Below are positions 8,991-56,488 of a stretch of DNA of 64,000 nucleotides, in pieces. Location of the stretch: the NCBI GenBank assembly GCA_964475265.1, contig CAYYVY010000003.1, positions 1,500-65,499 on the forward strand, in the 5' to 3' direction. This DNA is from an uncultured Anaerolineaceae bacterium (lineage in GTDB: Bacteria > Chloroflexota > Anaerolineae > Anaerolineales > E44-bin32). The position numbers were made by a program, and so were the translations under genes. The notes below the pieces were generated by a model. That model was not told where the DNA came from. It made no database searches and saw only the letters and a list, made by a program, of their open reading frames with translations. Each line of letters opens with the position of its first letter. Within the stretch, counting starts at the first letter, position 1.

Positions 8991-9746
8991 GTGGCACAAA
9001 GGGATTACGAAAGGGTTGTCATCGCAGAAGATAATCAAGAGCGTGCTTCCGAGATGATGCAAATTCTCACAGTAATCGGTGGATTTGATGTATCGATTAC
9101 GAAATGGAGAGCCGAAGTAGACAATCTCGTCAGCACGACAAACGCCGGATGGCTTATCCTTGATTTGAACCTTGAAGATGGAAATTCGGCAGAAATCGTG
9201 CCTTTACTTCGGGAACGATATGGGGAAGAACTGATAATCATCATTTTATCTGGATATTATGAAGATTTTCCCGAATGGGATTTGTTGTCCTGCGGAGCGG
9301 ATCTATATCTCAGAAAGCCGTATCGACCAAAGGCAATGCTTCAACAAATGGAAACGCTGCGAGCCCGTATGAGAGGGCAGGCACTGAAACAATCCACCAG
9401 CATCAAGCTCAAGATTGGTGATGGCGTTCTCGATCTGGAACGAGCGATTTATAAAAAGGGAACGATGGAAATTGGTATTCCACACGTTCAGATCAAGTTG
9501 ATCCGACTGCTGGCGTCGGCGCGCGATAATGATGGCTGGAAGTTCGTTGAACGCCCAGAAATCATCATGCATGTATGGGGTGAAGACTTTGAAGTGGACC
9601 CGATCACAACGACGGAGCGGCTGCGGAAATTGAGAAACCGAATCCGGAACACGTTGGGCATGGAGATTACCGACAGCATTCAATCGAGCACGAAGCGACT
9701 TCCCAGATATCGACTGATCTCGGAGATTAAGGTTATCGAGGAATAA
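8991..9746 (+). CDS. OmpR/PhoB-type response regulator (receiver + winged-helix)
   Basis: GTG start with GGAGGA upstream. Receiver residues: IAEDN, ILDLNLEDG, ILSG, LRKPY. The C-terminal region (VQIKLIRLLA...ERLRKLRNRIRNTLG) looks like trans_reg_C. Confidence 0.85.
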   Translation: MAQRDYERVVIAEDNQERASEMMQILTVIGGFDVSITKWRAEVDNLVSTTNAGWLILDLNLEDGNSAEIVPLLRERYGEELIIIILSGYYEDFPEWDLLSCGADLYLRKPYRPKAMLQQMETLRARMRGQALKQSTSIKLKIGDGVLDLERAIYKKGTMEIGIPHVQIKLIRLLASARDNDGWKFVERPEIIMHVWGEDFEVDPITTTERLRKLRNRIRNTLGMEITDSIQSSTKRLPRYRLISEIKVIEE

Positions 9747-9785
9747 AAAAGTGTTTCCGTCAGTATTCGAAAAGGATCGGTAGAC

Positions 9786-10859
9786 GTGCCTAAAACCCCG
9801 CCAGGTTTCCATTTACCTCCTTTTGTCATGGTGCCAGAGGATCTTGAAGAGGTAGCCCTTCACGTCGAAGAGAACCTTGCTGCTGGTCGCGAGGAGATGT
9901 TTTGGCCCATCTCCACAGGATTTGAGCCCATCGATCGATACGCGGGTGGGGGACTCCATGCCGGCGATCTGACGATCGTGGGGGGTGTACAGAACGTCGG
10001 TAAAACAGCGCTCGTGCTTCAATGGGCCAATCACCTCGCCGTCAACGACGCCCTTGCCATTGTCGTTTGTTACGAGCACAACACAATCACGCTTTGGGAA
10101 CGTCTACTCTGTCAGAACTCCTATATTGCCAATCGCGAGGAACACATCACTATGGATTTACTCCGTCAGGCATACATCGAGGCAATTCGAGAGCGTGATC
10201 GGATTCAAGTCAATGCGTCCCACGACAAAATGCATATGCTCGACGAGGTCCTTTCGAGGATACCGAGAGGAACTCGAGCCTGGTCGACTCTGACCGACCG
10301 CATCCGCAACATCTGGTTGGTCATGGGCGATGGCGTGAATACAGATCTCGTCTCATTGCGCCGCTATGTTGAGCTTGCCGTTCAACACTATAATAAACCC
10401 AGGGTTGTGCTCTTTATCGATTACGTACAGCGAGTCCCGGTAATTGATGCCTCAGGCGCGCTCGAGACTGAAGAGCGCATCGAGCGAGTTCTGGCGGGCT
10501 TGAAAGGTCTAGCGATGCGGACGACAGCCCAGGGGGCTGTCTTGTCCGTTGTTGCGGTTGGCGCCGCGGATGATGATGGTCTTCGTAAGGGAAGAGTGCA
10601 TCTCGAGAATCTCTGGGGGAACCCCATCATGCAGTATGAGCCGGACGTTGCGCTGATTGCCAACCGGGATGGTGTCGATACAGATGGTGTTCCGTTGGTG
10701 CGTTGGTCGCTGGAAAAAAACCGGCGAGGTCAGAGCAATATCGAGTTTCGTCATCGCTACCACGGTGCCGCATACTCCTTTGAACCAAACGGTGTAATAA
10801 TTGGCCACAATGAAAGCTGGCAATCTGAGCGTGATGGATGTGAAAACCGATGCGAATGA
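9786..10859 (+). CDS. DnaB-C-terminal-like / KaiC-like RecA-fold ATPase (no DnaB N-terminal domain)
   Basis: FEPIDRYAGGGLHAGDLTIVGGVQNVGKTALVLQWANHLA (Walker A); VCYEHNTITLWERLLCQ; Walker B VVLFIDYVQRV (compare DnaB IDYLQL); ENLWGNPIMQYEPDVALI (compare DLReSG.iEQDAD). The start is uncertain (GTG 9786 or ATG 9828). Confidence 0.6.
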   Translation: MPKTPPGFHLPPFVMVPEDLEEVALHVEENLAAGREEMFWPISTGFEPIDRYAGGGLHAGDLTIVGGVQNVGKTALVLQWANHLAVNDALAIVVCYEHNTITLWERLLCQNSYIANREEHITMDLLRQAYIEAIRERDRIQVNASHDKMHMLDEVLSRIPRGTRAWSTLTDRIRNIWLVMGDGVNTDLVSLRRYVELAVQHYNKPRVVLFIDYVQRVPVIDASGALETEERIERVLAGLKGLAMRTTAQGAVLSVVAVGAADDDGLRKGRVHLENLWGNPIMQYEPDVALIANRDGVDTDGVPLVRWSLEKNRRGQSNIEFRHRYHGAAYSFEPNGVIIGHNESWQSERDGCENRCE

Positions 10860-10947
10860 CAGGCTGCGGGGGAATGAGTGTAATAGAACAGAATAACTTC
10901 GGAGTGTTAAACCTCTTGGATAGAACTCTACTTGGGACCACGATGGC

Positions 10948-11541
10948 ATGAACGCCTTCGTGGCCAGTTTTACGACGGCGCTTTTAATCTGGGCAGCGCG
11001 GCTAGACCTAATGACCAGGAAAATCCCCAGAGGTGCTGGTTTTGGCGTCTTGGCCATCGGTCTCTTCGTTCTGCTGTGGAATCAGCTTTGGATCGAAGCA
11101 TTGTATTACGTTCTCGCGATCTGGTGTACTTCGGGAGGCGTTTGGACGTTGCTGTTAATCCTTGCCTCACTGGCAACTGCATTCGTCCGCGGCGGGGATA
11201 GCATCCCGCTTGTTTTAGGCCTCGTTATTATTTCTGTGTTTTTTTGGATGCATTGGTTCGGTGGTGGGGATGCGCAGCTCGCCATCGGACTTATTGGGAT
11301 CGGCCACGATTGGGCCATTCTTGCTTTTCTGGTTGGAGCAACAATTATCTCGATGATTTTTCTTGTTTTCCGAAGACATGGAGTGACAGAAGGTCTCAAG
11401 CGGCTGCACCAGGTTTTTCGTAATCTCGCCGCAAAACCGGACGCACATGCGATCCGTACACCTTGGGCGGTGATTGCTATGATTGCGGGCATCTTGTATC
11501 TTTGGTTGTGGCCTTTGTTCATCGGAGGCAGCTCGGTATGA
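10948..11541 (+). CDS. A24-family prepilin peptidase (CpaA/TadV type, peptidase domain only)
   Basis: Polytopic membrane protein with the two catalytic Asp contexts AARLDLMTRKIP and FGGGDAQLAIGLIG. Confidence 0.75.
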   Translation: MNAFVASFTTALLIWAARLDLMTRKIPRGAGFGVLAIGLFVLLWNQLWIEALYYVLAIWCTSGGVWTLLLILASLATAFVRGGDSIPLVLGLVIISVFFWMHWFGGGDAQLAIGLIGIGHDWAILAFLVGATIISMIFLVFRRHGVTEGLKRLHQVFRNLAAKPDAHAIRTPWAVIAMIAGILYLWLWPLFIGGSSV

Positions 11542-16662: not shown

Positions 16663-17306
16663 ACGCTGAAAACGAGATTTTGGAAGATCACATCCGCCGG
16701 CGCGCCGATGACCAGATCGAACAGATTGAAGCCCGTTACGTTTCCGATCAGAATGATGCCGATGAGAATCATCGGACCAAAAGGCCGCAGACGATAGAGC
16801 ACGTCCTGTCCGCCCGGCGGCAGGAAGAATGCGGCAATTTTCTCGCCGTCGAGCGGGAAAATGGGCAGGAGATTGAAAAAGAGCAGGATGAGGTTGTAAA
16901 AAATGAACAGCAGTAAGAAAGGGGCCACGATGCCGGCGATCTCCGGCTCGATGCTGCCCGAAGAGAACAACCCCATGCGGAACGGCAGTGATGCGAGGAT
17001 GGCGAGGAGCAAGTTCGAGAATGGCCCCGCCAGAGCAACGAGCATGAATCCGGCCGGCGTCCGTCGACGCAGGGCGAAGTAGTTCACGGGGACCGGTTTC
17101 GCCCAACCGAATCCGGCGATGACGAACATCAAGGAACCCCAAAGATCGAGATGGGCGAGCGGGTTGAGGGTCAATCGGCCCGCCAGGCGCGGCGTGTCGT
17201 CTCCCAATTGATCCGCAGTCCAGGCATGGGCAAATTCATGGATGGAGAGGGACAGCACCAGGGTGATGATGAGAGATGCGATTTGAAGCGGTTCAAGCGA
17301 TAACAT
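16659..17306 (-). CDS. site-2 protease (M50) family metalloprotease
   Basis: HEFAHAW (HExxH) inside a TM helix; polytopic; LNPLAHLD motif. Confidence 0.8.
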
Positions 17307-17416
17307 GTTCAGGATTATACCATCCGCAGGGGGCGCAGCGCTTTAGCGCGCCGGAGATTGACGCATATGTGGGTGGTATAATCCGCGCCAACGCCTTCTT
17401 CGTTTTAGGGTGTGAC

Positions 17417-17626
17417 ATGCTGCCGGAATTACAAATGGGAGACGTTCTACGCTTACGTAAGCCGCATCCATGTGGGAACACGGATTGGGTCGTGGTGCGT
17501 TTGGGTGCCGACATTGGTTTGAAATGCCTGGGATGCGGCCGGCGCATTCTCCTGCCGCGGCGAGAGGTGGCTCGCAGGATGAAATCCTACGTTACGAAGG
17601 GCGGTGTGGATGTAAACGGCACTTGA
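17417..17626 (+). CDS. DUF951 family protein
   Basis: [42 protein letters not shown] is the typical DUF951 sequence. The start is internal to track ORF 17276-17626. Confidence 0.7.
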
Positions 17627-17784
17627 GCCGGAAGCGACCTTGGCGCTGCGAGCCTGTTCCCGGTAAAGGCGTGCAGGCGCGAAGATTTTTTAACCGTACA
17701 GTTGCATCACGCAAAATAGAGATTCCAATCGATACGCTGGCACGCCAGCGAGGTTTCTGAGCGGCGTCCGGCCTCGATTGAAGT

Positions 17785-17958
17785 CTATAGGTTTGCGATG
17801 ACGTTACTATACATGTTCCCCACTGCGCCGCCAAAAAGGGCCAGTACCACGATCACGATGATCGCCACCAGAACGAGGATCAGCGCATATTCTACGAGCC
17901 CCTGACCGCGTGGGAAAGAATATAATGAACGAAGACTTCGATAATATAAATTTTGCAT
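17785..17958 (-). CDS. flp: Flp family type IVb pilin precursor
   Basis: 57 aa from MQNLYY.... The motif FPRG/QGLVEYALILVLVAIIVIVV has Gly, then E at +5 and Y at +6, followed by a hydrophobic helix. This is the Flp prepilin processing motif. Confidence 0.75.
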   Translation of the reverse strand: MQNLYYRSLRSLYSFPRGQGLVEYALILVLVAIIVIVVLALFGGAVGNMYSNVIANL

Positions 17959-18078
17959 AATATTAAGTATAGTATACGGTCGCAAAGCGGAATAACTCAA
18001 TAGTATTCCAGTGTAGGGTGTCATCCGGGGAGATTGGCGAGTTCTACCGGTTTACGAAGGAAGCGGGAAGGAGGAATC

Positions 18079-18399
18079 GTGCACAAGTTGATGCTCATTT
18101 TCCGGCGACCGGAGGATTTATCGACTTTCGAAACCCGTTGGAGCCACGATTTTGTACGGGCGGCGGAGAAAATGCCGGGGATCCGCCGTGTGACGGTGAG
18201 TCGGATCAATGGAGGCCTTGCTGAAGCGGTTGACTTCCATCTCGTGCATGAATTCTACTTTGATAACGCAGAATCGATGCGGCGAGCAATGGCTTCGTCG
18301 AGCGGACAGAACGCCGGAAGGATCCTGATGTCCTTTGCCGCAGACATCGTTACGCTTTGTTACGCCGAACATTGGGAAGATGATCTTGAACGATCGTAG
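18079..18399 (+). CDS. EthD family reductase-like protein
   Basis: GTG at 18079 lies 7 nt after GGAGGA. HKLMLIFRRPEDLSTFETRWSHDFVRAAEKMPGIRRVTV is the EthD/TIGR02118 pattern. Confidence 0.6.
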   Translation: MHKLMLIFRRPEDLSTFETRWSHDFVRAAEKMPGIRRVTVSRINGGLAEAVDFHLVHEFYFDNAESMRRAMASSSGQNAGRILMSFAADIVTLCYAEHWEDDLERS

Positions 18400-18452
18400 C
18401 CGGGTTGTATCTCGAGACACAGCAGCTCCGACAGAATGGAAGCGGAAGAGGA

Positions 18453-18938
18453 ATGATGCTGACTCCGGATGATTTGAGAGCGTTCATTGAGAAGAACAAC
18501 GTCGATGCGCAGGTGATCGTCCTTCCTGTGGCGACGCCAACCGTAGAGGACGCCGCACAGGCCGTCGGCACTTCCTCGAGCCAGATCGTGAAGAGCCTGC
18601 TCTTTTTAGCCGATGAAGAACCGGTGTTGGCCGTTGCCTGTGGAAAGGATCGAATCGATCGCCGCCCGATCGGCAGGCATTTCGGGATTGGGCGTAAACG
18701 CGTGAAGATGGCCGACGCCGATGCGGTCTTGAAGTTCTCGGGCTACCCGATTGGGGCGGTGCCGCCTTTTGGGTTGCCCGAGCAGCCGGTGACGCTCATC
18801 GATGTGCGTCTTTTCGAACATGAGGTCGTCTACGCCGGAGGCGGGGACATTCATGCGCTCATAAAAGTACATCCTCGGGAAATTGAGCGAGTGACGCACG
18901 GGATTCGGTTGGACCTTCTCAACCTCGGTGAGCGTTGA
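18453..18938 (+). CDS. YbaK/EbsC-type aminoacyl-tRNA deacylase domain protein
   Basis: TVEDAAQAVG...IVKSLLF...GYPIGAVPPFGL...IDV.L......YAGGG is the YbaK/ProX editing-domain pattern. Confidence 0.7.
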   Translation: MMLTPDDLRAFIEKNNVDAQVIVLPVATPTVEDAAQAVGTSSSQIVKSLLFLADEEPVLAVACGKDRIDRRPIGRHFGIGRKRVKMADADAVLKFSGYPIGAVPPFGLPEQPVTLIDVRLFEHEVVYAGGGDIHALIKVHPREIERVTHGIRLDLLNLGER

Positions 18939-18939
18939 A

Positions 18940-19644
18940 ATGAAAAGGCCCCTGGGTTTGGGTATTTCGCTGGTCGTTGTGGTCGTGCTCGTTGCGGCTT
19001 ATTACGTCTATCAAGGTTACCAATCTTCTTCCGGCCGGATGCAGCGATTGCGAAAATACTGGCAAAATCCCGAAGCGCAGCGCGAGGGCGTGATCCATGC
19101 GGGAGAGCGATGCGGCGAGGCGCCTTTCATCATGCCCACAGACGGGTTGATTGGCTTCGTGTGGGGAGATTCCTTTCGGCCCGGGCACACCCATCAAGGA
19201 CTGGATATATTCGGTGCGGACGGCTTGGGACGCACGCCGGTCGTGGCGGCGTACGATGCCTATCTGACGCGGCTGCCCGATTGGCGATCTTCGATCATTC
19301 TACGCATCGAATCCGATCCGCTTCAACCGACACGGCAAATCTGGCTCTACTATACGCATATGGCGGATGCGCAAGGGAATTCGTTTATTGTGGACACTTT
19401 TCCGCCGGGAACGTACGATCAATTCGTCGAAGCGGGAACGCTGTTGGGGTATCAGGGCAATTATTCGGCCGACCCCGATAACCCCACCGGCATCCATCTG
19501 CATTTCTCCATCGTGAAGGACGACGGAGAGAGGAATTTCAAAAACGAATTGGTGTTCAATAACACAATCGATCCTTCGCCGTATCTGGGCCTGCAGCTCA
19601 ACGCCGATGAGCTGGGCGACGGGGACATCACCTGCACTGACTGA
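18940..19644 (+). CDS. M23 family metallopeptidase (membrane-anchored)
   Basis: N-terminal TM helix, HTHQGLDIF (HxxxD) and GIHLHFSI (HxH). Confidence 0.75.
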   Translation: MKRPLGLGISLVVVVVLVAAYYVYQGYQSSSGRMQRLRKYWQNPEAQREGVIHAGERCGEAPFIMPTDGLIGFVWGDSFRPGHTHQGLDIFGADGLGRTPVVAAYDAYLTRLPDWRSSIILRIESDPLQPTRQIWLYYTHMADAQGNSFIVDTFPPGTYDQFVEAGTLLGYQGNYSADPDNPTGIHLHFSIVKDDGERNFKNELVFNNTIDPSPYLGLQLNADELGDGDITCTD

Positions 19645-45266: not shown

Positions 45267-47327
45267 TCAGCTTATCTTGTCCGCCGCCAGAAGTTCTGCG
45301 TCCTGCGCTCGCGCAACCTTGCGTCCTTCCGCCACGTCTACCGTGGTTAACAGCCAACCACCGATGATGAAGAAGGCGATCAAACTCAGAATGGCGGGCC
45401 GGCTGCTGGCGAACGCCGCGCCGGCGGCTGCAAAGAGGATTGGACCCAGGACGGCGGAAAACTTCTCCATTACGCCGAACAGGCCGAAAAATTCTCCACT
45501 TTTCGCCGCGGGTGACATGACGGCGTACAGGCTGCGGCTTAGCGCCTGGCTGCCGCCCTGGACCGTGGCGACCATCCAGGCCAGGAACCAAAATTCGATG
45601 GTCGAGTTAAGGAAGTAGCCCCAGGCCGCAATGACTGCATACGCCAGCAGGGCCAGGATGATGCTGTGCTTCGTGTCCAGTTTGGCGGCGAGTTTGGAGA
45701 AAAGCCGGTCTCCGACAAGCCAGGCAAACAGCAGCCCAACGATCTGCAAGACCAGGATCAGGCCGAGGATGACGAGCAGACTTTGTTGGCGCGCGGCCGG
45801 CATGACCTCGAATGCGGCGATCGAGATCGTGTTTCCGGCGCTTTCCGCATTCCGATCCGGTGTGTTGATCAGGGAAAGGGTATGGACTCCGGCTTCGTCG
45901 ATCTCGATGGTGTCGGAGAGGACGCCGTAACGCGTAGTGGAAGCGTACGTATCGAGCGTAAGCTCCGTTCCTTCCGAGTCCAGGTAGGGTTCTCCGTCGA
46001 TTTCGACGGCCCAGATGCCCCCGTCCGGTCCTTCGCTGTACGTGAATTGAACTTCCTGCCCGTTGAAAGTGAAATCGAGGCGCGTGTCCGAATCACTGGT
46101 TTGTCGATAGATAACGTCTTCTACGCTTTCACCGAACAGGCGATTGATGAACTCGAAGAAACCGCCCCCGCTGATCTCGCTGGCAGAGACTTCCTCGTCG
46201 CGCCAATTGCCTGTGAACGAAATCGTCTCATGATCCACATCATGTATACCTTCGCCGGCGGCTGCAGCAGTGGCCTGGAAGACCGCGGGCTTCGATCCTG
46301 TAACGTCTGCAGGGAGCAGTTTAAGGCCCAGGACGCCAACGAGGGGCAGCATGATTATGTTGAAGACGATGAAAGCCAGATAGAACGATCTGCGTTTTTC
46401 ACGAGGGCTGGGAATTCGGCCGAAGATCAAACTGAAGGGAATGCCTACGAACTGCACCAGCAGAAGGGCGAGAATCAACTCGACCGTGCCGAAGCCAAGT
46501 TCGGCGCCGTAGATCGCGGCGACGCCGATGATCGTGCCGATGCCATCGTTGTAAATCAAGAAGGCGAGTAGAAATTTAAAGAGTTGACGATATTGGCGAA
46601 TATCTTTGAAGGTTTCACGCAGTCGTTTGAAACTTGCCGAGATAACGTTCTCTCTAGAACCAAGTTCAGCGGTGGCCGCGGGCGGTTCGGGTATGATGCG
46701 CAGCATTGGGACGGTGAAAATCGCCCACCAGACGGCAACACTGAGAAACGATAGGCGGGAGCCCAACGTCCCGGGCAGCATTTGAATCATGGCCACGTTT
46801 ACCGCCAGAAGGATGCCGCCGCCCAGGTATCCGAGTGCGTATCCGCGAGTCGAAACTCGATCGCGATCGTCTTCCTTGGCCACATGCGGCAGCAGTGCGT
46901 CGTAGAAGACATTCGCTCCAGTAAATCCAATGCGGCCGAGCACGAACAGGATCGACGCCAATACCCAGTCACCCGTCTGAATGAAAACCATCAGCCCGGT
47001 GGCCACGATGCCGATACCTGCGAAAACCGACAGAAAACCTTTTTTACCGCGTTTGATGTCGGATATCGTGCCGAGGATCGGGGAGAGCAGAGCGATGACG
47101 AAGAGCGAGATGGATAGGCCCAGGCTCCAAAGCGCCGTCGCAGCGGCGCGACTGGGCAGCGTCGCGCCGGCCACCTGGCTGTAATAAATCGGCAGCACGG
47201 CGGCCAGGATCGTCGTAGCGAAGGCGGAGTTTGCCCAATCGTACAGCGTCCAAGCGCGGATGCGGCGTTTGTATTCCATTTCACTGATTCCGTTATACGC
47301 GGCGACGGTTGCGGCTGCCATGTGCAC
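45267..47327 (-). CDS. MFS transporter, UMF1 (Atg22-like) family, with a roughly 175-aa soluble insertion
   Basis: AWTLYDWANSAFATTILAAVLPIYY is the UMF1 N-terminal signature. Residues about 340-515 (nt about 45783-46310) are non-hydrophobic and beta-rich (RLDFTFNGQEVQFTYSEGPDGGIWAVEIDGEPY ... GVHTLSLINTPDRNAESAGNTISIAAFEV). Confidence 0.7.
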   Translation of the reverse strand: MHMAAATVAAYNGISEMEYKRRIRAWTLYDWANSAFATTILAAVLPIYYSQVAGATLPSRAAATALWSLGLSISLFVIALLSPILGTISDIKRGKKGFLSVFAGIGIVATGLMVFIQTGDWVLASILFVLGRIGFTGANVFYDALLPHVAKEDDRDRVSTRGYALGYLGGGILLAVNVAMIQMLPGTLGSRLSFLSVAVWWAIFTVPMLRIIPEPPAATAELGSRENVISASFKRLRETFKDIRQYRQLFKFLLAFLIYNDGIGTIIGVAAIYGAELGFGTVELILALLLVQFVGIPFSLIFGRIPSPREKRRSFYLAFIVFNIIMLPLVGVLGLKLLPADVTGSKPAVFQATAAAAGEGIHDVDHETISFTGNWRDEEVSASEISGGGFFEFINRLFGESVEDVIYRQTSDSDTRLDFTFNGQEVQFTYSEGPDGGIWAVEIDGEPYLDSEGTELTLDTYASTTRYGVLSDTIEIDEAGVHTLSLINTPDRNAESAGNTISIAAFEVMPAARQQSLLVILGLILVLQIVGLLFAWLVGDRLFSKLAAKLDTKHSIILALLAYAVIAAWGYFLNSTIEFWFLAWMVATVQGGSQALSRSLYAVMSPAAKSGEFFGLFGVMEKFSAVLGPILFAAAGAAFASSRPAILSLIAFFIIGGWLLTTVDVAEGRKVARAQDAELLAADKIS

Positions 47328-47493: not shown

Positions 47494-49035
47494 CTACGGC
47501 TTCGTGAAAGGCCGATCTTTCTCCTCGATCATCTTAAGCATTTCTTGCTGCAGTTGCGAAGCAATTGTCGGATGGGTGGTGAGTAGATTCTGCAATTCTT
47601 CCGGATCATCGCGCAAGTTGTAGAGCTCGTACACACCGTCGTGCCCCTCGTAGCCGCGGTAGTGGATCAATTTGAAATCGCCTTTGATCATCGCCACCGT
47701 CGCTTTGCGTAAAGGAGCCAGTTTGGGGTTGCTTTTGGCTTCAACGACGAAGATGCTTCGCTCGCTGGGATGATCTTGTGCGGCATATGGGGGAAGAACC
47801 AATCCTTCACACCACGAAGGGATTGAACGACCGGCAAGGTGAAGCAGGGTAGGCAGAATGTCGATACAGCTTGTGGGGAGATAGACGTCCTGACGCTCTT
47901 TCTGACCGGGCCGTGTAATCAACAGCGGGACACGGACGATCGGTTCGAACAACGTAGGTGTGGTGTGTTTCCATATCTTGCGTTCAAACATCTCACCATG
48001 GTCGGACGTCAGCACGACAATGGTGTTGTCGTAGAACCCATTGGTTTCCAGATAATGATCCAATCGCCCGAACTCCGCATCGACGTAGGCGATGTATTCG
48101 TCGTAGAAGACGCGTTTCTCGTCCAAAACGTGCTGCCGATCTTCGAAGTTGGCAAAGAAATGATCGGGTTTCGGCGTTGGCGTCCAACCATCCCAGAAAA
48201 TGTTTACAAATTCCTCGCGTGGGCTGTAGGGATCATGTGGAGGCATCATGTGTAAATAACTGATGAAGGGTTGAGGCCACTCGGTCATTTGTTCTTGGAT
48301 CCAATCAATCGTCTCTTCGAGCGGGTAGAGCATGTCGTGATATCCCGGTACACCGCGGGGAAACCTTCGTTCCAAACGTCGCATTATGGATTGGTTCACG
48401 AACTTCTTTATCGACCATAAGATCGGGAAAAGGAAAAGAGAATTGGACGGTTCTCCCGGTTGTTTGTAATGACTGCGTTCGCCCTGGGAAGCGATACCAT
48501 AATCGCGCCGGAAGAGGTTATCGGAGACATTGAAGTCCACCAAGGCGATTTGATTGGGGAGTGTGAAAAGGTCGAGGTTTTGTTGGAGATAGAACAAAAT
48601 GATGTTTACCAAGAGATTGTGGGAAAACCCGACGCGGGTGTAGGTCTCTGCGTTGAATTCGCTGAAAATATTTCTGGAAGTGAATGAATCAAGCGGGGTT
48701 GCGTGGTGGCTGAATGCCCGATGCGTCCAGGGGAGCGTTCCGGTGAGTATGGAGGAGGTGCCGGGCGTGGTGAAGTTGCCGCCGGCGTAATGGTTGTGAT
48801 AGACGGTTGCTCTCTCTGCAAAGCGTTTCAAGTTGGGTGTCGTCTCCCGATGGAATCCGTAGAGAGACACATCGCGGGCTGCGAGCGTGTCGAAAACTAC
48901 GATGAGCACATTGGGTTTGTTCGCATTGGTTTTATTCCGGCCAAACGAAGGACTGGAGCCGGCAACCCACGGTGTGGCGAGCGAGATCAAGGAAGCCATT
49001 TTCAGGAATTCGCGCCGGTTAATTTTTGGTCTCAT
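47494..49035 (-). CDS. Tat-exported sulfatase-fold (alkaline-phosphatase superfamily) enzyme, Thr-type nucleophile motif
   Basis: Tat motif NRREFLKM. Metal and active-site motifs VLIVVFDTL, NFTTPGTSSILTG (TxPxT where sulfatases have CxPxR) and LTSDHGEMF. Confidence 0.75.
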   Translation of the reverse strand: MRPKINRREFLKMASLISLATPWVAGSSPSFGRNKTNANKPNVLIVVFDTLAARDVSLYGFHRETTPNLKRFAERATVYHNHYAGGNFTTPGTSSILTGTLPWTHRAFSHHATPLDSFTSRNIFSEFNAETYTRVGFSHNLLVNIILFYLQQNLDLFTLPNQIALVDFNVSDNLFRRDYGIASQGERSHYKQPGEPSNSLFLFPILWSIKKFVNQSIMRRLERRFPRGVPGYHDMLYPLEETIDWIQEQMTEWPQPFISYLHMMPPHDPYSPREEFVNIFWDGWTPTPKPDHFFANFEDRQHVLDEKRVFYDEYIAYVDAEFGRLDHYLETNGFYDNTIVVLTSDHGEMFERKIWKHTTPTLFEPIVRVPLLITRPGQKERQDVYLPTSCIDILPTLLHLAGRSIPSWCEGLVLPPYAAQDHPSERSIFVVEAKSNPKLAPLRKATVAMIKGDFKLIHYRGYEGHDGVYELYNLRDDPEELQNLLTTHPTIASQLQQEMLKMIEEKDRPFTKP

Positions 49036-49042
49036 TGAATAC

Positions 49043-49561
49043 TCACAGATTCCGTGCGATGACGACTATGACCCCGATGATGTCGAGAAACACATATAGA
49101 AAGGTCAGGATCGTAAGCCGTTCTGCCACGAGGCGGGTTATCTTTTGCAACTTTGATATTCTAGGTACGATGATGAGTGATATTGCCAGGGTCATCAGGC
49201 AAGCAACGAACATCCAACGTAAGGGGGAATACTGCTGTACAAGGTGTTGAAAGACGATGGCCATGATCGAGAGTTCAATCAAGAGGACTGCACACGTGGT
49301 TAGGAAAGGTTCTGGCAGCCATCTCTTGGGGATCAGCAAACCGATGACGAGTATGATGAGATAGATGAGGAGTGTCTCGAAAATCGTAAACATCAGATGG
49401 TATGCCACGCTGCCAACGATGTCGTCCCCACTCATGTACAGAATCCACGAGGGGACGTTTCTGAGCATGATGATGATCGACCAAACGTGGATTGGAAAGG
49501 CGCACAGAACGAATACGTGCATCAGATCTTGTGGAGAAAAGCGTTTTCGCAGGAATTTCAA
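49043..49561 (-). CDS. hypothetical polytopic membrane protein (paired with the sulfatase-fold gene)
   Basis: 172 aa with about 5-6 TM helices. The stop lies 7 nt before the sulfatase-fold start. Paralogue of 51171-51731. Confidence 0.6.
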   Translation of the reverse strand: MKFLRKRFSPQDLMHVFVLCAFPIHVWSIIIMLRNVPSWILYMSGDDIVGSVAYHLMFTIFETLLIYLIILVIGLLIPKRWLPEPFLTTCAVLLIELSIMAIVFQHLVQQYSPLRWMFVACLMTLAISLIIVPRISKLQKITRLVAERLTILTFLYVFLDIIGVIVVIARNL

Positions 49562-49611
49562 CGTTGCTTGACCTCGCTTGGAGATAGTCTCGTCATTTTA
49601 GAGAGGCAAGG

Positions 49612-51162
49612 CTAGTCTGAGTCCGATTGGATAAAAGGCGCATCCTTCTCCTCAATCTTCGCCAGCAGCTCATTTTTTAATGCTAACGCGATAGACGATT
49701 GAGTTGAGTAAAGATTTTCCAGTTCGTCAGGATCCTGTTCTAAATTATAGAGTTCGTATACGTCGTCGTATCCTTGATAACCCCGGTAATAGATCAGTTT
49801 GAACTCGCCTTTAATCATCGCGACGGTGGCTTTGCGCAGCGGTCCTATTTTGGGATTGCTTTTCGCTTCCACAGCGAAGATGCTGCGGTCGGGAGGTTGA
49901 TTTTGCGGCGTGTAGGGGGGAAGCACCGTGCCTTCAACCCAGGATGGAATCTGACGCTTTGTAAGATGCAGGAGGGTAGGCAGGACGTCCACGGAACAAG
50001 TCGTGGTGCGCACATCTTGCCGTGAAGTTTGGCCGGGGGTGGAGATCAGCAGTGGTACGCGGATGATGGGCTGGAACAGCGTCGGCGTAGTGTGCTGCCA
50101 TATCTTGCGTTCGAACATCTCCCCGTGGTCGGATGTAAGGATTACGATACTGTTGTCGAATACGCCAGTTTCCTGCAAATAGTCATGCAGACGTCCGAAC
50201 TCGGCATCCACGTAAGCTATGAATTGATCATAAAAAATGCGATGTCCATCGAGGATGTGTTGTCGGTTGGGGAAGTCGCCGAAAAAGTGGTCGGGTTTTG
50301 AAGGGGGTTGCCAACCATCCAGATACAAATCGATGAAATCTTTCCGGGGGCGGTAGGGATCGTGTGGCGGCATCATGTGCAGGTAGGCCAGGAAGGGTTG
50401 TGACCAGCGCCTCAACTGTTCCATGATCCAGTCGATGGTGTCTTCAAGCGGATACAGCACGTCATGGTCGCCGGGAATGCCCTTGGGGAAGTTGCCCTCG
50501 AGGCGATCGATCAGCAAGTTATTGATTTTTTCCCGAATAGACCAGAGGATCGGGAACAGAAAGAGAGAATCAGACAACCTATCGGGTTTTTTGAAGTAAA
50601 AAGTCTCGCTTTGGGAGGCGATCGAGTAATCCCATGGGAATATGTTATCGGCGAGGTTGTAATCGATCAAAGCCACCTCGTTCGGCAAAATGAATTCATC
50701 GAGGTTGGCTTTCAAATGGTCGAGGATCAGGCTGGCGAAGAAATTGTGTGTGAAGCCGATGCGTGTGTAATCACCGCCGCCAAATTCGCTGAAAACGTTA
50801 CGGTCGTTGTAGGCATCGAGCAGGGTGCCGTAGTGATTTATTGCCCTGTGGGTCCACGGGTAAGTCCCGGTGAGCAGCGAAGAAGTTCCCGGAGTCGTGA
50901 AATTGCCTGCGGAGTAATGCCTGTGAAACACTGTTGCGTGTTCCGCGAAACGCAGCAGGTTGGGGGTAGTTTCTCGATTGAAGCCGTAGAGTGAGGCATC
51001 ATGCGCGGAAAAAGCGTCGAAGACGATGATGATGACGTTGGGAGTGTCCGCATTTGTTCTCTGTTCTTCGAATTCGGGGTTCGACGCAGATAGAATTGGA
51101 GAGGTGAAAGGGATAAGGGATGCCAGCTTGAGAAATCCACGACGATTGATGGTTGGTTTCAT
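49612..51162 (-). CDS. Tat-exported sulfatase-fold (alkaline-phosphatase superfamily) enzyme, paralogue
   Basis: Start at MKPTINRRGFLKL (ATG 51162). The 97-aa upstream extension in the track overlaps the membrane gene and is rejected. It carries the same NFTTPGTSSLLTG and LTSDHGEMF motifs and is collinear with 47494-49035. Confidence 0.75.
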   Translation of the reverse strand: MKPTINRRGFLKLASLIPFTSPILSASNPEFEEQRTNADTPNVIIIVFDAFSAHDASLYGFNRETTPNLLRFAEHATVFHRHYSAGNFTTPGTSSLLTGTYPWTHRAINHYGTLLDAYNDRNVFSEFGGGDYTRIGFTHNFFASLILDHLKANLDEFILPNEVALIDYNLADNIFPWDYSIASQSETFYFKKPDRLSDSLFLFPILWSIREKINNLLIDRLEGNFPKGIPGDHDVLYPLEDTIDWIMEQLRRWSQPFLAYLHMMPPHDPYRPRKDFIDLYLDGWQPPSKPDHFFGDFPNRQHILDGHRIFYDQFIAYVDAEFGRLHDYLQETGVFDNSIVILTSDHGEMFERKIWQHTTPTLFQPIIRVPLLISTPGQTSRQDVRTTTCSVDVLPTLLHLTKRQIPSWVEGTVLPPYTPQNQPPDRSIFAVEAKSNPKIGPLRKATVAMIKGEFKLIYYRGYQGYDDVYELYNLEQDPDELENLYSTQSSIALALKNELLAKIEEKDAPFIQSDSD

Positions 51163-51170
51163 AGTATGGC

Positions 51171-51731
51171 TCACAGGATCCGGGTGAATACGACGACCAG
51201 GGCGACGATATCGACAAAAATATAGAGGAATGTAAGAACGGTCAGCCGTTTGATGATGGCGACGAAGATGTTGTTTAGCTTCTGGATGCGTGATACTGCA
51301 AATGCGACCACGATGGCCAGCAGTATCGCCGCGACGACCAGGAGGCGTCGATAGAGTACATATTTGAGCGTAAGGTATTGAATGGCGATCGCCAAGAGGG
51401 AGAGTTCGATCAACAACACAAAGCAAAAAGGAACGATCGATGGTCCGATCCACCGTTTGGGGATCAATAGTCCCAATAACAAAATACAGGCGAATACAAA
51501 GATGCTCTCGACGAGCATGAAGGTCAAAGTATAGGAAACGGCGCCAACAAGTTCACTTCTTGTTAGGTGAAGCAGCCAGGAAGGAACATCGCGGAACATG
51601 TTGGGGATCGCCCATACATGGATCGGAAACGAACAGGTGACGAAAATCTGTATTAACTCTTCTGAAGAAAACCTGTGCTTAAAGATAGCCAAGATCCTTG
51701 AGCCTTTCTTCCAGAGTTTCCCGATCTTCAT
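51171..51731 (-). CDS. hypothetical polytopic membrane protein, paralogue of 49043-49561
   Basis: Collinear with its paralogue from FKHRFSSEEL onward. The start is uncertain (GTG 51785, ATG 51731 or TTG 51692), and all candidates overlap the end of the upstream gene. Confidence 0.55.
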   Translation of the reverse strand: MKIGKLWKKGSRILAIFKHRFSSEELIQIFVTCSFPIHVWAIPNMFRDVPSWLLHLTRSELVGAVSYTLTFMLVESIFVFACILLLGLLIPKRWIGPSIVPFCFVLLIELSLLAIAIQYLTLKYVLYRRLLVVAAILLAIVVAFAVSRIQKLNNIFVAIIKRLTVLTFLYIFVDIVALVVVFTRIL

Positions 51732-53523
51732 CACTCGTAACTGGCGGCTTGGATGCTGAGGTTTCACGGGGTTGGAATTTTCCACCGATCACCAGATCCG
51801 GAACGTCGGCGTACGAGGGCGATGCGAGTTGTTCCAAGCTCGTGTTGGCAAACAGCACGCCCGGCACGAGGCCCGGGTCGATGCAGTGATCCGCACCCCA
51901 GTGATCGAGATTCCTTTCGAGTGCGTCGGCCTCCCAATTTCCGAGTCCCGTCTGCCCCGAAGCTCGATATCCGCTATTGAATCCCACTACAAGATCCGGC
52001 GCGTAGGGCGTGAGCGGGCCGTGGAACGCTTCCTCGCCCGTCCAGACCGTCCGCACAATCTGTCGGTTATCGGGTCCTTTCCAAGAGAGCAGCTCGTCTT
52101 TGATTTGGGCGGACAGCGCAGCTTGTTCGTTGTCGGCGACAATGCCGAGCTTCTCTCGCCCGGACATGTTGAGGTAAATGCTCGATAATCCCACCGCATA
52201 AGCACGGGTCTTCTGCCAGAGGACGTCCTGAAGTCCCCCTCGTGCCTCGTTGGTCTCAGGGGCAAGATGGCCATGTTCAATGAGCCAGCGATTCAGGTGA
52301 ACTTTGTAGTCGAAGCTGCTAAAGCCATGATCGGAGAGCACCAGAACTCTTGCATCTTGATGACCGCATTTTTTAATTTGCGCCACGATGCGGCCGAACA
52401 AGGCGTCCAATTTCAGGTACCATGATTCGACAATGTCCTCTCGGTCTCGCCAAAACATGTGCTGAAGACGATCGAGGGAGTCGAAAACGATGGCGAGAAT
52501 GCCTTCGTCGAAAGCTTGAATCTGACTCATAAGTACTTTTTCGCGAGACTCGAGGATCGAATCACACAAATATAAAAAGTGGTCGTCCTGAATGAATCCC
52601 TCGTCCAATGCGGTCGTGTCCTGTGGCCAGCCGAGGGTGTGAAACGGGCCGACATTTATCCACAGCCCCTTGGCGAAACCACCTGGATTGGCGTAAGGCC
52701 ACACAGCTTTTTGGGGATGTATCTGCAGCGGGAGGAAGTACAATCCCGGTCCATGGGAATTTTCGGTCAGCAGGACTTGCGTGATGGCGCGCACGGAAAC
52801 ACCGAGCCGCAGTTTGAAAGCAAGTTCGACAAAAGGACTCCAACGATCCTTTTCCAGCGCAATGATGTTCTTGTTGATTTGCAATCTGGCGTTGTTGGCG
52901 TCGATCCATTCGATCTCGAAAGCAAGTGAGGCTTGCTTGTCATCGGTTTTGTCCGATTTAAGCAGCGGTCCCTTCAAGGTGCCGTGTGCTTTTTGCTTGC
53001 CATCCGGTGAGAGGGTTTCGACGTTGGTTTTGTAGGTCTTTTCTGTGGGGTTGGGGTCAAGCTTGAAATAGGTTCCCACACCCAGGCGGCCGAGGATGTC
53101 TGGCGTCCCGAGGCCGGGGATCGTTTGTACGGGGGATTGCCTGCGGGCGGGAAAAGTTGCCGGCCACCAAAGGGTCGTAGCGGGATAGCCCATCTCTACG
53201 GCGTGTTCGAATACGGTATGGGCGTTGTGCGGGGGGACGAACTGCACGCCGAGCGCCGATTTCCTTGTGGGCAGTAAGGAAACGTGCAGGGCGTAATTGT
53301 CTGGATTGCGGTGTACGAAATCGAAGAGTCCGTGTTCGCCCGGGTTCATGCCGCTGGCGATACTGGTCCAGGAAACTTCACTTTGTGCAGGATTAGCAAC
53401 CGCCAAGCGGGCATAACCCTTGTTTGCGACATACTCTCCCAGGTTTGGCAGTTTCCCTTGGCTGTGCAGCCGTTCGAACAGGGTGGGATCGAACGCATCG
53501 AATCCGATAATAAAGGTTTTCAT
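51679..53523 (-). CDS. alkaline phosphatase family protein (type I phosphodiesterase / nucleotide pyrophosphatase-like)
   Basis: MKTFIIGFDAFDP, SEVSWTSIASGMNPGEHGLFDF and VLSDHGF form the PF01663-like motif order. Confidence 0.7.
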   Translation of the reverse strand: MKTFIIGFDAFDPTLFERLHSQGKLPNLGEYVANKGYARLAVANPAQSEVSWTSIASGMNPGEHGLFDFVHRNPDNYALHVSLLPTRKSALGVQFVPPHNAHTVFEHAVEMGYPATTLWWPATFPARRQSPVQTIPGLGTPDILGRLGVGTYFKLDPNPTEKTYKTNVETLSPDGKQKAHGTLKGPLLKSDKTDDKQASLAFEIEWIDANNARLQINKNIIALEKDRWSPFVELAFKLRLGVSVRAITQVLLTENSHGPGLYFLPLQIHPQKAVWPYANPGGFAKGLWINVGPFHTLGWPQDTTALDEGFIQDDHFLYLCDSILESREKVLMSQIQAFDEGILAIVFDSLDRLQHMFWRDREDIVESWYLKLDALFGRIVAQIKKCGHQDARVLVLSDHGFSSFDYKVHLNRWLIEHGHLAPETNEARGGLQDVLWQKTRAYAVGLSSIYLNMSGREKLGIVADNEQAALSAQIKDELLSWKGPDNRQIVRTVWTGEEAFHGPLTPYAPDLVVGFNSGYRASGQTGLGNWEADALERNLDHWGADHCIDPGLVPGVLFANTSLEQLASPSYADVPDLVIGGKFQPRETSASKPPVTSDEDRETLEERLKDLGYL

Positions 53524-53548
53524 CTAAATACTACAGTGAGTCCCGGTT

Positions 53549-53749
53549 TCACTGATCCGTGGATGGATCTACATCCGTGCTTTCGATTTCTGCAGGCGTG
53601 TCGCTTCCCGATTCTCGGAATCGTCGCTTCAACCTCGCCCAAAACATGCGAATCTTGCTTGAAAACACCAGAACCATCCCAGATATCGCCGCAAAGAGAA
53701 TCGCTAAGAGTTGAAAAATCTGGCCTCCGGTGTTCGGATCAATATACAT
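53549..53749 (-). CDS. hypothetical small membrane protein (66 aa)
   Basis: MYIDPNTGGQIFQLLAILFAAISGMVLVF (one TM helix) followed by a basic then acidic tail. It sits directly upstream of the AlkP-family gene. Confidence 0.4.
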   Translation of the reverse strand: MYIDPNTGGQIFQLLAILFAAISGMVLVFSSKIRMFWARLKRRFRESGSDTPAEIESTDVDPSTDQ

Positions 53750-53964
53750 GGTTGCACCTCTATTCTTAAATCGAAACGAAATTTGTGTTCATCCGGGTGC
53801 GATACGTCGCCGAAAACAAAAAGGTTTAACGTCTTTGCCCGAATTGGTGGATTTCATCGATTTATGATCCCCGACATTATAAACCATGTCGCAGGTTGTT
53901 TTCAGTTTGATAAAAATCTGGGCGTGGTTCCGAGCGGCCGCGGGGCCTTTTCACGATTCAATTT

Positions 53965-54564
53965 TTACTTGCGCTGACGGTAGAGCTTGGGATCAACCGT
54001 GCGAACCATCGAATCCAGATCGAGTGCGCAACCGAGGAATTGAGCGATCTTCTCGACGTAGGTTTGTGGATCGTTGACGATTTCCTTATAAGGCATATCG
54101 ATACGGGCAATGTAGTCTTGTTGGGAGAGCCATACTTCGATCTCTCGCAGGTGATTCTCGAGGATCGTTTTCATTTTCTCGTCATCGATCTTATCGGGGT
54201 TTTCACCGCGGCGAACGATCATCTTTCGCTGTGAGGCAAGCACCTCGCCGAGTTCGCGCTGCATAAAGATGACGTGATAGTGCAGGTCTTTGGGAAGCTT
54301 GGGAAGAAGATAGGAAATGATCTTGACGACTTTGCCTCCGGCGTTTTCCACCCAGGAAGTCTCCCCTTCCTTCAGCTGCTTCACTGCTTCGTATTCGTAA
54401 TACCCCAGGGGATTATCATCGTCCGCCTGGCGGACGCCATCGGTGAGGAGTTCTAGCCCGCCGCTTGCGAGCATATTCATCATCATGGATGTCCCTGAGC
54501 GGGGCAATCCAGATACAACGACGATGGTGTCGGATATTTTGGGGTCGATCGTGGGGTTGGTCAT
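53965..54564 (-). CDS. sulfotransferase family protein
   Basis: VVVSGLPRSGTSMMMNML is the PAPS 5'-phosphosulfate-binding loop. The roughly 200-aa size is typical of bacterial stand-alone sulfotransferases. Confidence 0.7.
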   Translation of the reverse strand: MTNPTIDPKISDTIVVVSGLPRSGTSMMMNMLASGGLELLTDGVRQADDDNPLGYYEYEAVKQLKEGETSWVENAGGKVVKIISYLLPKLPKDLHYHVIFMQRELGEVLASQRKMIVRRGENPDKIDDEKMKTILENHLREIEVWLSQQDYIARIDMPYKEIVNDPQTYVEKIAQFLGCALDLDSMVRTVDPKLYRQRK

Positions 54565-54616: not shown

Positions 54617-56197
54617 CTATTGGACGGAATCTACGAAGTATTTCGGGTTCAGCGGCTCTGCGGTCACGCTTTCGAGGTGACTCGCCCAATCCTGGCTGGC
54701 GCCGGGTTTGAAGTAATTCTCAATCAGCCACCGGCCGGTCTGGGTCTGTCCCAGGCGTGTGCCACTCTGCTTACTCAGGAACGCTTGCAGCTGCGACGAC
54801 ACGAGATGGCCGATTTCATAGCTATGATAGTAGACGGGGACGAGTGCCACGTGGTACTTTGCAGCCCAGTCCGGTGCGCGCCGATTTTCGGGCCGCCGCA
54901 GCAACTGATATTTCTCGACCAGATCCCACCATAAAGTATCCAAGTCCCGTTCAGGATCAGCGTAGAGGGCACGCTCGAAATCCGTCATCACCATCGCCCA
55001 GCGTGTGAAAACCAGCCGCTGGGCGCGTTTCTGTTCGGCGGCGGCGGAAGAAAGGCGTTCCGCTTCACTGTCATCCATCCCCAGCACGCTGCTCAGCCAG
55101 ATGCGATCGTAGGTCTGTGCTTCCATCAACAGCGCGATGGCTTCTGTGGATAAGGAGTGCGGTGGGGTTCTTAGAATCCACGGCAATTGGGGATCGATGT
55201 GCTGGTCGTATACTGCGTGGCCGAGTTCGTGAAGCAGGATCGACGTCCAGTGGTGGGAGGGCTCCAGGTTGTTTAGCGTGCGTACGTCGCCTTCCCGATC
55301 GATGTCGATACAGAAGGCATGTTGGTCTTTACCTTCACGCGGGTAGAGGTCGGAGCGGTCGAGGATGCCGCGCACATCTATTTCCATGCCGTCGTAGGTC
55401 GCGAGGGCCAACTCGATGGGGTCTCGATCTGCAAAATAAGGATCCAGCGCCACTTCGCTGATCTCTGGCGCGCGTTGGAAAAAACGATCGCCGTAATGCC
55501 AGGGTCGCAGGTCTACCGCGTCGATTCCGAAGTGCCCGGCGCGGACCCGGTCGATCGTTTCCTTCAAGCGTATAAACGGTGTTCGAGTGGCTGTTTCGAG
55601 TTCGGCGAAGAGTGCCGCCAGCTGTGCCTCATCGATTTCATTGAGAACCAGCGACCGCTGGTAATGATCGCGGAAGCCTTGCGCCTGTGCAGATTTGTTC
55701 CGCAGGCGGGCCAACTCCCGTACGTAGTCGGCGACTTCTTCGCCGATGCGCTTGCTCGCTTCCCAGACCTGGCGCACGGCGGAAGAATCATGGCTGGTGC
55801 GCAAAATACTCTCTACTTCGTTATCACTGATCGATTTTCCATCGACGAGGGCGCGAAAGTTGTAAAAGCAATGTTGGGCCTTGGTCTCGAGATCGGTGAT
55901 GGCTTCGATGGTTGCTTCGTCTTGCTGCGCTTTCGCGCTCGCGAGGTAGATCCGCTTTAGCGTTCGACGGTGCAGCGCATCGTCCGTGGTGCTCGTTTCG
56001 TTGAATTTCTGCGCGGTTTCGTACAGTTTTTTATCGGCCCAGAAGCGCATCAATTCGGCTTTGGCGTCTTTCTCGCGTCGTGCGGCCTCTTCCGTGCCCG
56101 TCGTGGCGGACTGCCACATGGCGCTTGAGAATTGAATGTGCAGCTTGCGTACTCGCTCGGTGACTTCGTCAATGAACGTTTGCGGTCGTTCTGTCAT
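54617..56197 (-). CDS. gluzincin zinc metallopeptidase (M2/M3-like)
   Basis: Start at MTERPQTF (ATG 56197). HELGHAVYD is followed by a downstream STEAIALLME (compare HEAIGD of M2). Confidence 0.65.
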   Translation of the reverse strand: MTERPQTFIDEVTERVRKLHIQFSSAMWQSATTGTEEAARREKDAKAELMRFWADKKLYETAQKFNETSTTDDALHRRTLKRIYLASAKAQQDEATIEAITDLETKAQHCFYNFRALVDGKSISDNEVESILRTSHDSSAVRQVWEASKRIGEEVADYVRELARLRNKSAQAQGFRDHYQRSLVLNEIDEAQLAALFAELETATRTPFIRLKETIDRVRAGHFGIDAVDLRPWHYGDRFFQRAPEISEVALDPYFADRDPIELALATYDGMEIDVRGILDRSDLYPREGKDQHAFCIDIDREGDVRTLNNLEPSHHWTSILLHELGHAVYDQHIDPQLPWILRTPPHSLSTEAIALLMEAQTYDRIWLSSVLGMDDSEAERLSSAAAEQKRAQRLVFTRWAMVMTDFERALYADPERDLDTLWWDLVEKYQLLRRPENRRAPDWAAKYHVALVPVYYHSYEIGHLVSSQLQAFLSKQSGTRLGQTQTGRWLIENYFKPGASQDWASHLESVTAEPLNPKYFVDSVQ

Positions 56198-56488
56198 GCA
56201 TGACTCCAAACTGCAGTTGTTTGCAGCGCAGTGATGAAGTATATCAGAGGATCGCACTGCGCGATTGAATGCGCAGACGGCTTGGGCCATCGGCCCCGAG
56301 CGCTTCGTTTAGGAGCGAAAACGGATTTGCCGCAGGTTCGGCTTGAGTCTATTATGGGAGTAAGGCTGCCACGCGTTCTGCGAAACGTCACAAACGGTAG
56401 GCGCGATCCGTTTTGTATATAAAGACGGCAAACGATGACCTGAAATCCACTTTTTCACTCGTGACCGAGTCTAATCAAGGAGGTTCTC

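Follow-up and report, generated by a model that had tools for sequence, protein, structure and literature searches.

Tandem units of a five-helix membrane protein and a putative exported, threonine-nucleophile relative of arylsulfatases in an uncultured Anaerolineaceae bacterium

A stretch of 64,000 nucleotides (nt) from an uncultured Anaerolineaceae bacterium (assembly GCA_964475265.1, contig CAYYVY010000003.1, positions 1,500 to 65,499; hereafter the window) was analyzed with regard to two collinear units on its minus strand, each formed by a gene for a small membrane protein followed by a gene for an enzyme of the sulfatase fold. Unit A comprises membrane subunit A (51171..51692, 173 amino acids, aa) and enzyme A (49612..51162, 516 aa), and unit B comprises membrane subunit B (49043..49561, 172 aa, with a TTG start) and enzyme B (47494..49035, 513 aa), a paralogue of enzyme A. 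The stop codon of the membrane gene was separated from the ATG of the enzyme gene by 8 nt in unit A and by 7 nt in unit B. A preliminary description of this DNA had reported a tandemly duplicated two-gene unit with a gap of 7-8 nt in both copies, and both observations held: the unit was duplicated whole, and the module is conserved well beyond this genome. The same description had stated that a majority of residues are identical between the copies, which proved correct for the enzymes (324/513 positions, 63%) but not for the membrane proteins (79/172, 46%, or about 45-46%) in global alignments. At the DNA level, the two units were 65.6% identical over 2045 aligned positions. A scan for promoters and terminators within the array returned nothing informative.

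The start of enzyme A was placed at the ATG at 51162, as this agrees with enzyme B and with every homologue of about 510 aa; a 613-aa open reading frame (ORF) listed for this enzyme was rejected as upstream read-through in a different frame. For membrane gene A, the TTG at 51692 is more likely to be the start than the alternative ATG at 51731 (186 aa), because the predicted 173-aa product is identical to a database protein (P0022) called from that TTG, and because this start recreates a 14-nt overlap with the stop of the upstream PF01663 gene that is known in loci L002 and L009 (loci carrying the module in other genomes and metagenomes are referred to by such numbers). The overlap recurs in many loci, and the junction between the PF01663 gene and the membrane gene was the same in 14 metagenome loci when compared through stop-to-stop ORF coordinates.

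Both enzymes matched PF00884 (Sulfatase) with E values of about 1e-38 (1.1e-38 for enzyme A), and also the SGSH_C domain. Their N-termini carry a twin-arginine motif of the form RRxFLK (INRRGFLKL and INRREFLKM; MKPTINRRGFLKL in enzyme A), followed by a moderately hydrophobic stretch, as in substrates of the twin-arginine translocation (Tat) pathway (S/T-R-R-x-F-L-K), which suggests export by this route. The closest solved relatives were a choline sulfatase, an arylsulfatase and a phosphonate monoester hydrolase (PMH), with E values of 1e-25 to 1e-22 against the PDB. Consistently, the NCBIfam models for choline-sulfatase and arylsulfatase matched with E values of 1e-32 to 1e-39, and those for LtaS, EptA, YejM and CptA with values of 1e-10 to 4e-3 over partial stretches, in both cases far under the curated cut-offs; the nearest models are thus not those of the LtaS/EptA/OpgB/YejM group.

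The nucleophile region of enzyme A reads NFTTPGTSS, and this N-F-T-T-P-G-T-S-S segment was aligned by HMMER to N-P-C-G-P-S-R-A-S of PMH 4upk. In the PDB alignments T89 of enzyme B falls on the cysteine that is converted to formylglycine (FGly) in 4upk, and also on the corresponding serine of chain 7oz8, while T93 falls on the arginine of the C/S-x-P-x-R formylglycine signature, which in the enzyme has become T-T-P-G-T. In an alignment of 34 sequences spanning 46-66% identity, R7, R8, D49, T89, H267, D345 and H346 were invariant, and T93, L11 and K12 were conserved in at least 90%. The PF00884 match together with the metal-binding D49 and D345/H346 places the enzyme within the sulfatase fold, and, by alignment alone, T89 stands beside a single metal site (D49, D345, H346) in the manner of LtaS and EptA. 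Both the RRxF motif and an N[FY]T[TS]PGT-type motif were present in all 55 homologues read (43 + 12). Threonine cannot be converted to formylglycine, and the authors of SulfAtlas advise that PF00884 proteins of this kind should not be named sulfatases (PMC5066984). The covalent nucleophile of the alkaline phosphatase superfamily is a serine, a threonine or a formylglycine, LtaS and the phosphoethanolamine transferases being its threonine-using transferases (PMC3249071, PMC7576196). Since the cysteine or serine has been replaced by an invariant threonine, the enzyme is not a formylglycine sulfatase. It is probably an exported, metal-dependent, threonine-nucleophile member of the arylsulfatase/PMH branch, as far as export and chemistry may be read from motifs. 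A sulfatase-fold enzyme with a Tat signal, encoded apart from the membrane gene, is also what the preliminary description had proposed, and the PF00884 match and the invariant arginine pair agree with it.

Two candidate models for the enzyme were rejected. The Mn-dependent arylsulfatase EfAS uses Cys61/FGly and was recovered only as a weak NCBIfam match. A true sulfatase requiring a maturase was discarded on the grounds that the enzyme has no modifiable cysteine or serine and that a gene for the formylglycine-generating enzyme (FGE) was absent from the window and from the other loci. A 720-aa protein with an FGE-sulfatase domain and BNR repeats is encoded beside the array of L001, an Anaerolineales MAG (metagenome-assembled genome), at 16819-18981; the array enzymes offer it no residue to modify.

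The membrane protein has no family in Pfam or NCBIfam: a search of 22 diverse members against both returned none at E values up to 10. A profile search of 1.84 billion representative sequences recovered 1099 representatives at E <= 1e-3, and each of the best 150 matches was 130-241 aa long. Five transmembrane (TM) helices with the N-terminus inside and the C-terminus outside (N-in/C-out) were predicted for both membrane proteins of the window, membrane subunit A fitting the profile of the family. The AlphaFold model of membrane subunit B, based on 139 sequences, consisted of five long helices (predicted local distance difference test, pLDDT, 94.4; predicted TM-score, pTM, 0.86), an earlier model from a shallower alignment having reached a pLDDT of 74. 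The N-in/C-out topology follows from the positive-inside pattern of mean net charge (Lys + Arg minus Asp + Glu) in the same 139 sequences, which was +2.5 at the N-terminus, +1.9 in loop 2-3 and +2.3 in loop 4-5 for the inner segments, vs. +0.4 in loop 1-2, +0.1 in loop 3-4 and +1.1 in the C-terminal tail for the outer ones; the charge of the tail came essentially from the invariant Arg170. Near-invariant positions were W27, Y54, E62, P78, L152, Y156, R170 and N171, the last two forming the extreme C-terminus, on the extracytoplasmic side.

The association between the two genes was evaluated in 80 metagenome loci (L025-L104) retrieved with the enzyme profile. An enzyme gene followed every testable membrane gene (68/68), and a membrane gene lay directly upstream of 60 of the 73 enzyme genes with enough upstream DNA, the exceptions being additional enzyme copies in tandem, fragments with frameshifts and some five singletons. 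Conservation of the pairing in other genomes, on which the preliminary description had made its proposal depend, was thus observed. The spacing between the two genes ranged from a 4-nt overlap to 27 nt, and the enzyme is accompanied by an adjacent, co-oriented small membrane gene much as RdhA is by RdhB. Close metagenome-assembled genomes (MAGs) of Anaerolineales carried two or three tandem units in conserved synteny (M3 peptidase, sulfotransferase, small ORF, PF01663, units, transporter of the major facilitator superfamily (MFS), EamA, pantothenate kinase), and L008, from a Chloroflexota MAG, had one unit accompanied by genes for the sulfotransferase and PF01663 in another setting. The pair was kept in distant members at 26-30% identity, either alone in unrelated surroundings (L011, L014, L015) or with PF01663 (L009, L016, L018/19). 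A genome scan, with patterns drawn from a narrow first alignment, yielded five loci, all of them in Anaerolineales or Chloroflexota MAGs. Array variants (L016, at 9558-11099, L068, L094 and L064) included the order membrane-enzyme-enzyme and three successive enzymes with no visible membrane gene, and L064 held three full units; several enzymes may be served by one membrane subunit.

Fused homologues, a search for which had been suggested in the preliminary description, were not found in any of the sets covered. There was no ORF with both parts among the 94 enzyme genes of the metagenome loci, nor was there a fusion among the 120 enzyme clusters that ranked best (446-521 aa, apart from one partial of 352 aa) or the 150 + 33 matches of the membrane protein (117-241 aa).

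In order to compare the history of the two partners, identity values were contrasted across loci, and both proteins yielded the same grouping. Relatives of unit A were units 1 and 3 of L001 and unit 1 of L004, with 76, 68 and 59% identity for the membrane proteins and 80, 75 and 66% for the enzymes, respectively. Relatives of unit B were unit 2 of L001, unit 1 of L002 and unit 2 of L004 (66, 68 and 66% for the membrane proteins; 77, 80 and 74% for the enzymes). Units of the A and B types were each nearer to their orthologues in L001, L002 and L004 than A was to B. Membrane and enzyme identities were correlated over 77 pairs (r = 0.84), and also among comparisons under 60% enzyme identity (r = 0.57). 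The congruence of the identity matrices and of the grouping indicates that the units were copied whole, long ago, each membrane protein staying with its own enzyme. The tandem copies are therefore old paralogous units with matched partners, which probably differ in substrate or acceptor specificity.

Upstream of the units, on the same strand, lies a gene for a 614-aa protein without signal peptide, hence predicted to be cytoplasmic (51679..53523; PF01663, E 1.5e-28). A profile of 16 orthologues (mean column identity 65%), with an insert of ~200 residues, could be aligned to the nucleotide pyrophosphatase/phosphodiesterase (NPP) NPP1, Ser48 falling on the nucleophilic threonine and the SDHG motif being conserved; against the PDB, the single sequence found nothing, NPP1 was reached with the profile only, and no solved relative scored better than an E value of 7e-4. 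Of 31 testable loci, 20 had the gene, and in 14 it adjoined the membrane gene upstream; it is thus a frequent third component of the module. It is preceded by a gene for a mini-protein of 66 aa (53549..53749, minus strand), which begins with MYIDPNTGG and continues with a TM helix and a basic tail. Homologues of 53-97 aa, with YIDPNTGG at the N-terminus, one TM helix and a Lys/Arg-rich tail, were encoded in L001 (5788-5988), L002 (7944-8144), L009 (3858-4151), L016 (5336-5593) and L018 (9843-10004), in each case immediately upstream of either the PF01663 gene or the membrane gene. A YIDPNTGG-type motif was found in 21/21 metagenome loci, placed directly behind Met1 or behind a signal peptide that looks cleavable (..A|YIDP). 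The mini-protein had no family in Pfam or NCBIfam, its matches to LPXTG anchors being sub-threshold (E 0.14-0.17), and it looks like a sorting signal without cargo.

Further upstream, a 199-aa sulfotransferase of the type using 3'-phosphoadenosine 5'-phosphosulfate (PAPS) is encoded (53965..54564, minus strand; Sulfotransfer_3 and Sulfotransfer_1 matches), for which a search of the PDB returned nothing usable. Among the 31 loci with a length of 6 kb or more, nine had a gene of this 199-aa type, accompanied by PF01663 in 9/9; the gene also occurred in L001, L008 and L012, and the sulfotransferase is an optional fifth component of the cassette. A second, longer type of sulfotransferase and bifunctional genes for ATP-sulfurylase and adenosine 5'-phosphosulfate (APS) kinase also recur near the module. 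In a Pfam census of neighbours (132 proteins from 25 loci), the highest counts corresponded to sulfotransferases (9) and GFO/IDH/MocA oxidoreductases (7), followed by ATP-sulfurylase with APS kinase (4), GDP-mannose dehydratases/epimerases (4) and then glycosyltransferases. The recurrence of sulfotransferases and ATP-sulfurylase/APS-kinase genes suggests a sulfation pathway. In L016 the module lies within a cluster of Wzy_C, Acyl_transf_3, ABC2_membrane with Wzt_C (Wzm-Wzt) and GT4 genes. Altogether, the biosynthetic context points to the making or remodelling of a surface glycoconjugate, possibly sulfated.

The remaining neighbours were less conserved. An MFS/ATG22-like transporter of 686 aa (45267..47327, minus strand) lies directly 3' of the array; it was syntenic in L001 and L002 and was not beside the module in L008, L011, L014, L015 and L016, and it is probably outside the core module, as its synteny was limited to close Anaerolineales relatives. 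This transporter carries a soluble insert of ~190 residues between its halves (~residues 335-530), outside its Pfam matches. Upstream of the cassette there is a gene for an M3/M2-like oligoendopeptidase (54617-56290, minus strand), with synteny in L001 and L002 only. The G+C content of the cassette (48001-54000) was 0.50-0.53, with values typically of 0.55-0.62 in most of the window.

Our preferred reading, held tentatively, is that the pair may constitute an enzyme of two subunits that acts on the outer side of the cytoplasmic membrane in the manner of LtaS, EptA and OpgB. The catalytic subunit would fold and take up its metal in the cytoplasm, be exported through Tat, and dock on its own five-helix partner, which would retain it at the membrane of the single-membrane Chloroflexota cell and probably give it access to a membrane-embedded, lipid-linked substrate. 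There, with formylglycine chemistry precluded by the invariant threonine, T89 would most likely attack an ester of phosphate, either a diester or a monoester (a sulfate ester being less likely), and water or an acceptor would resolve the covalent threonine intermediate thus formed, as happens in LtaS, EptA and OpgB. In LtaS and EptA, the soluble domains hydrolyse their substrates and carry out no transfer without the membrane domains (PMC7576196).

Several results weigh against this two-subunit enzyme. No significant fold match was found for the membrane protein when its models were compared with the PDB by Foldseek: the first-ranked hit for both models was the membrane domain of PbgA/YejM (7t6d for the shallow model; 6v8q and 7t6d chains C and D for the deep one), with non-significant E values of 2-4.7 and TM-scores of 0.34-0.36, at a root-mean-square deviation (rmsd) of 8-9 A. 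Comparison by hhalign of a 22-sequence profile with the membrane domains of E. coli EptA, EptB, EptC, LapC and OpgB gave probabilities of at most 0.4%, in a test without power, as controls based on single sequences were equally blind between known members of that group (EptA-EptC 0.3%, EptA-LapC 0.3%). The sulfation context could equally mean a sulfate-ester substrate processed through an undescribed chemistry. Moreover, 13 of the 31 loci measuring 6 kb or more had the bare pair, with neither PF01663 nor sulfotransferase nearby, which implies that the link to glycans and sulfation is not universal. Finally, the singletons described above have no adjoining membrane gene, and in some arrays one membrane gene stands for two or three enzymes.

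The alternative that fares best, unlikely in our view and still to be taken seriously, is that the membrane protein acts as a dedicated and passive anchor and the enzyme as a scavenging phosphodiesterase, phosphatase or esterase that releases nutrients from soluble extracellular substrates, with no lipid-linked substrate or transfer involved. For rdhA-rdhB operons it is established that a Tat-exported enzyme and a small membrane protein encoded next to it are multiplied in tandem (PMC8905343, PMC10624902), the relatives of the enzyme in the arylsulfatase/PMH branch are all hydrolases, and the absence of detectable homology to the membrane domains of transferases and the MFS transporter 3' of the array in the window would also be in line with a mere anchor. 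However, near-invariant polar residues in or at the ends of the helices (E62, Y54, Y156, R170-N171) exceed what an anchor needs, the MFS neighbour is not conserved beyond close relatives, and the genes that recur beside the pair serve biosynthesis (a sulfotransferase of the cytoplasm, PAPS synthase, glycosyltransferases and exporters of polymers) rather than uptake or phosphate starvation.

It is improbable that the membrane protein assists the enzyme only indirectly, through export, maturation, metal delivery or transport of substrate or product without a stable complex, or that the two genes are merely co-transcribed. The enzymes without adjacent partner and the arrays sharing one fit such a role, but the 68/68 linkage, the distances typical of translational coupling, the unit-wise co-duplication and the matched divergence are those of stoichiometric partners, and 172 aa are few for a transporter in a five-helix protein that shows neither a repeat nor a known transporter fold.

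The least probable of the alternatives is the one closest to the preliminary description, which had seen in the pair a split version of LtaS/EptA-type transferases: the fission of an LtaS/EptA/OpgB/YejM-type gene, with the 172-aa protein as its five-TM domain and a phospholipid head group (phosphoglycerol, phosphoethanolamine) being moved to an envelope polymer, would account for the equal helix number and topology, the threonine nucleophile and the first rank of the PbgA/YejM membrane domain for both independent models, and in Staphylococcus aureus LtaS itself undergoes post-translational cleavage between the membrane domain and the catalytic domain, but the catalytic domain lies in the arylsulfatase/PMH/choline-sulfatase branch (NCBIfam E values of 1e-36 to 1e-39 vs. 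partial matches of 1e-6 to 1e-10), keeps the x-P-x spacing of C-x-P-x-R, the PPH-P motif and the SGSH_C subdomain, and bears a Tat signal that a fission product had no need to acquire, no fused form was seen among the genes and clusters examined, and the fold match was non-significant (TM-score 0.34, rmsd 8-9 A). Of that earlier proposal, an LtaS/EptA-like mode of working remains plausible, in view of the nucleophile and of the five N-in/C-out helices, while descent from a fused gene and split membership in that family found no support.

A wider and rather speculative interpretation, which we regard as improbable as it stands, is that the pair represents the extracytoplasmic half of a five-component envelope system not described before, made up of the sulfotransferase, the mini-protein, the NPP-like enzyme, the five-TM subunit and the threonine enzyme. 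A sulfated or phosphorylated group would be loaded onto the mini-protein, or onto a lipid carrier, in the cytoplasm, and the threonine enzyme, held by its five-TM partner, would then move it to the cell surface. The set of five components was found so far in Chloroflexota MAGs and unassigned metagenome contigs only. If it did operate in this way, transferase activity would have evolved on an arylsulfatase scaffold, and the system would be a functional stand-in for LtaS/LCP-type enzymes in single-membrane bacteria.

No description of the pair, of the T-T-P-G-T subfamily or of the mini-protein was found in the literature searched. What appears to be new is an envelope enzyme from the alkaline phosphatase superfamily that has a separate, obligate membrane subunit and, to judge from its N-terminus, export through Tat. 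In the source annotations, the enzymes are called 'arylsulfatase A-like', 'choline-sulfatase' or 'sulfatase-like hydrolase/transferase' and the membrane proteins 'hypothetical'. The enzyme family extends over about 3,400 protein clusters at E <= 1e-20, labelled 'arylsulfatase A-like' or 'choline-sulfatase'; as all 55 homologues read lacked the sulfatase-defining residue, many of those labels are probably wrong, as are the counts of 'sulfatases' in surveys of Anaerolineae metagenomes. The membrane partner, with about 1,100 clusters at 50% identity and no Pfam family, provides a handle on an unstudied family of membrane proteins. Should the pair be a true two-subunit transferase, the solution of LtaS and EptA, in which a sulfatase-fold domain is combined with a five-TM module on the outer side of the membrane, would have been reached independently from the arylsulfatase branch, with Tat export, with a possible bearing on the decoration of the Chloroflexota envelope, possibly with sulfated glycans.

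The module can be compared with four known systems. The 614-aa protein has in common with NPP1 and the bacterial NPP 2gsn the PF01663 core, the nucleophile position aligned with Ser48 and the SDHG metal site; it differs from these in its predicted cytoplasmic location, in a length greater by about 200 residues and in a large insert. S1 sulfatases, choline sulfatase and PMH (4upk, 7oz8, 6fny, 2vqr) gave the best sequence matches to the enzyme and share with it the two-subdomain architecture, the metal ligands, the PPH-P histidine and the SDHG motif. They differ from it in that the enzyme lacks both the modifiable Cys/Ser and the signature Arg, and has a universal Tat signal together with an obligate adjacent membrane partner.

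LtaS, EptA (MCR-1), OpgB and YejM (PbgA, LapC) resemble the pair in their extracytoplasmic PF00884 module, with a threonine nucleophile and Asp and Asp-His metal ligands, in their five-helix N-in/C-out membrane module, and in a gene context of envelope glycoconjugates. However, whereas in that group both modules belong to one polypeptide, here they are encoded by separate genes lying 7-8 nt apart, and the catalytic part has a Tat signal of its own and an SGSH_C subdomain. The nucleophile motif is T-T-P-G-T, which differs from the Thr-containing motifs in PF00884 proteins of the LtaS/EptA type, and the membrane parts have no detectable sequence homology. A parallel in design is found in RdhA-RdhB (PceA-PceB) of Dehalococcoidia and Firmicutes, in which a Tat enzyme is also encoded beside a small dedicated membrane protein and the unit has been multiplied. 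RdhB is smaller, with two or three helices. The proteins and their chemistry are unrelated to those of the pair, and in the pair the membrane gene comes first. The RdhA-RdhB design is also common in Chloroflexota.

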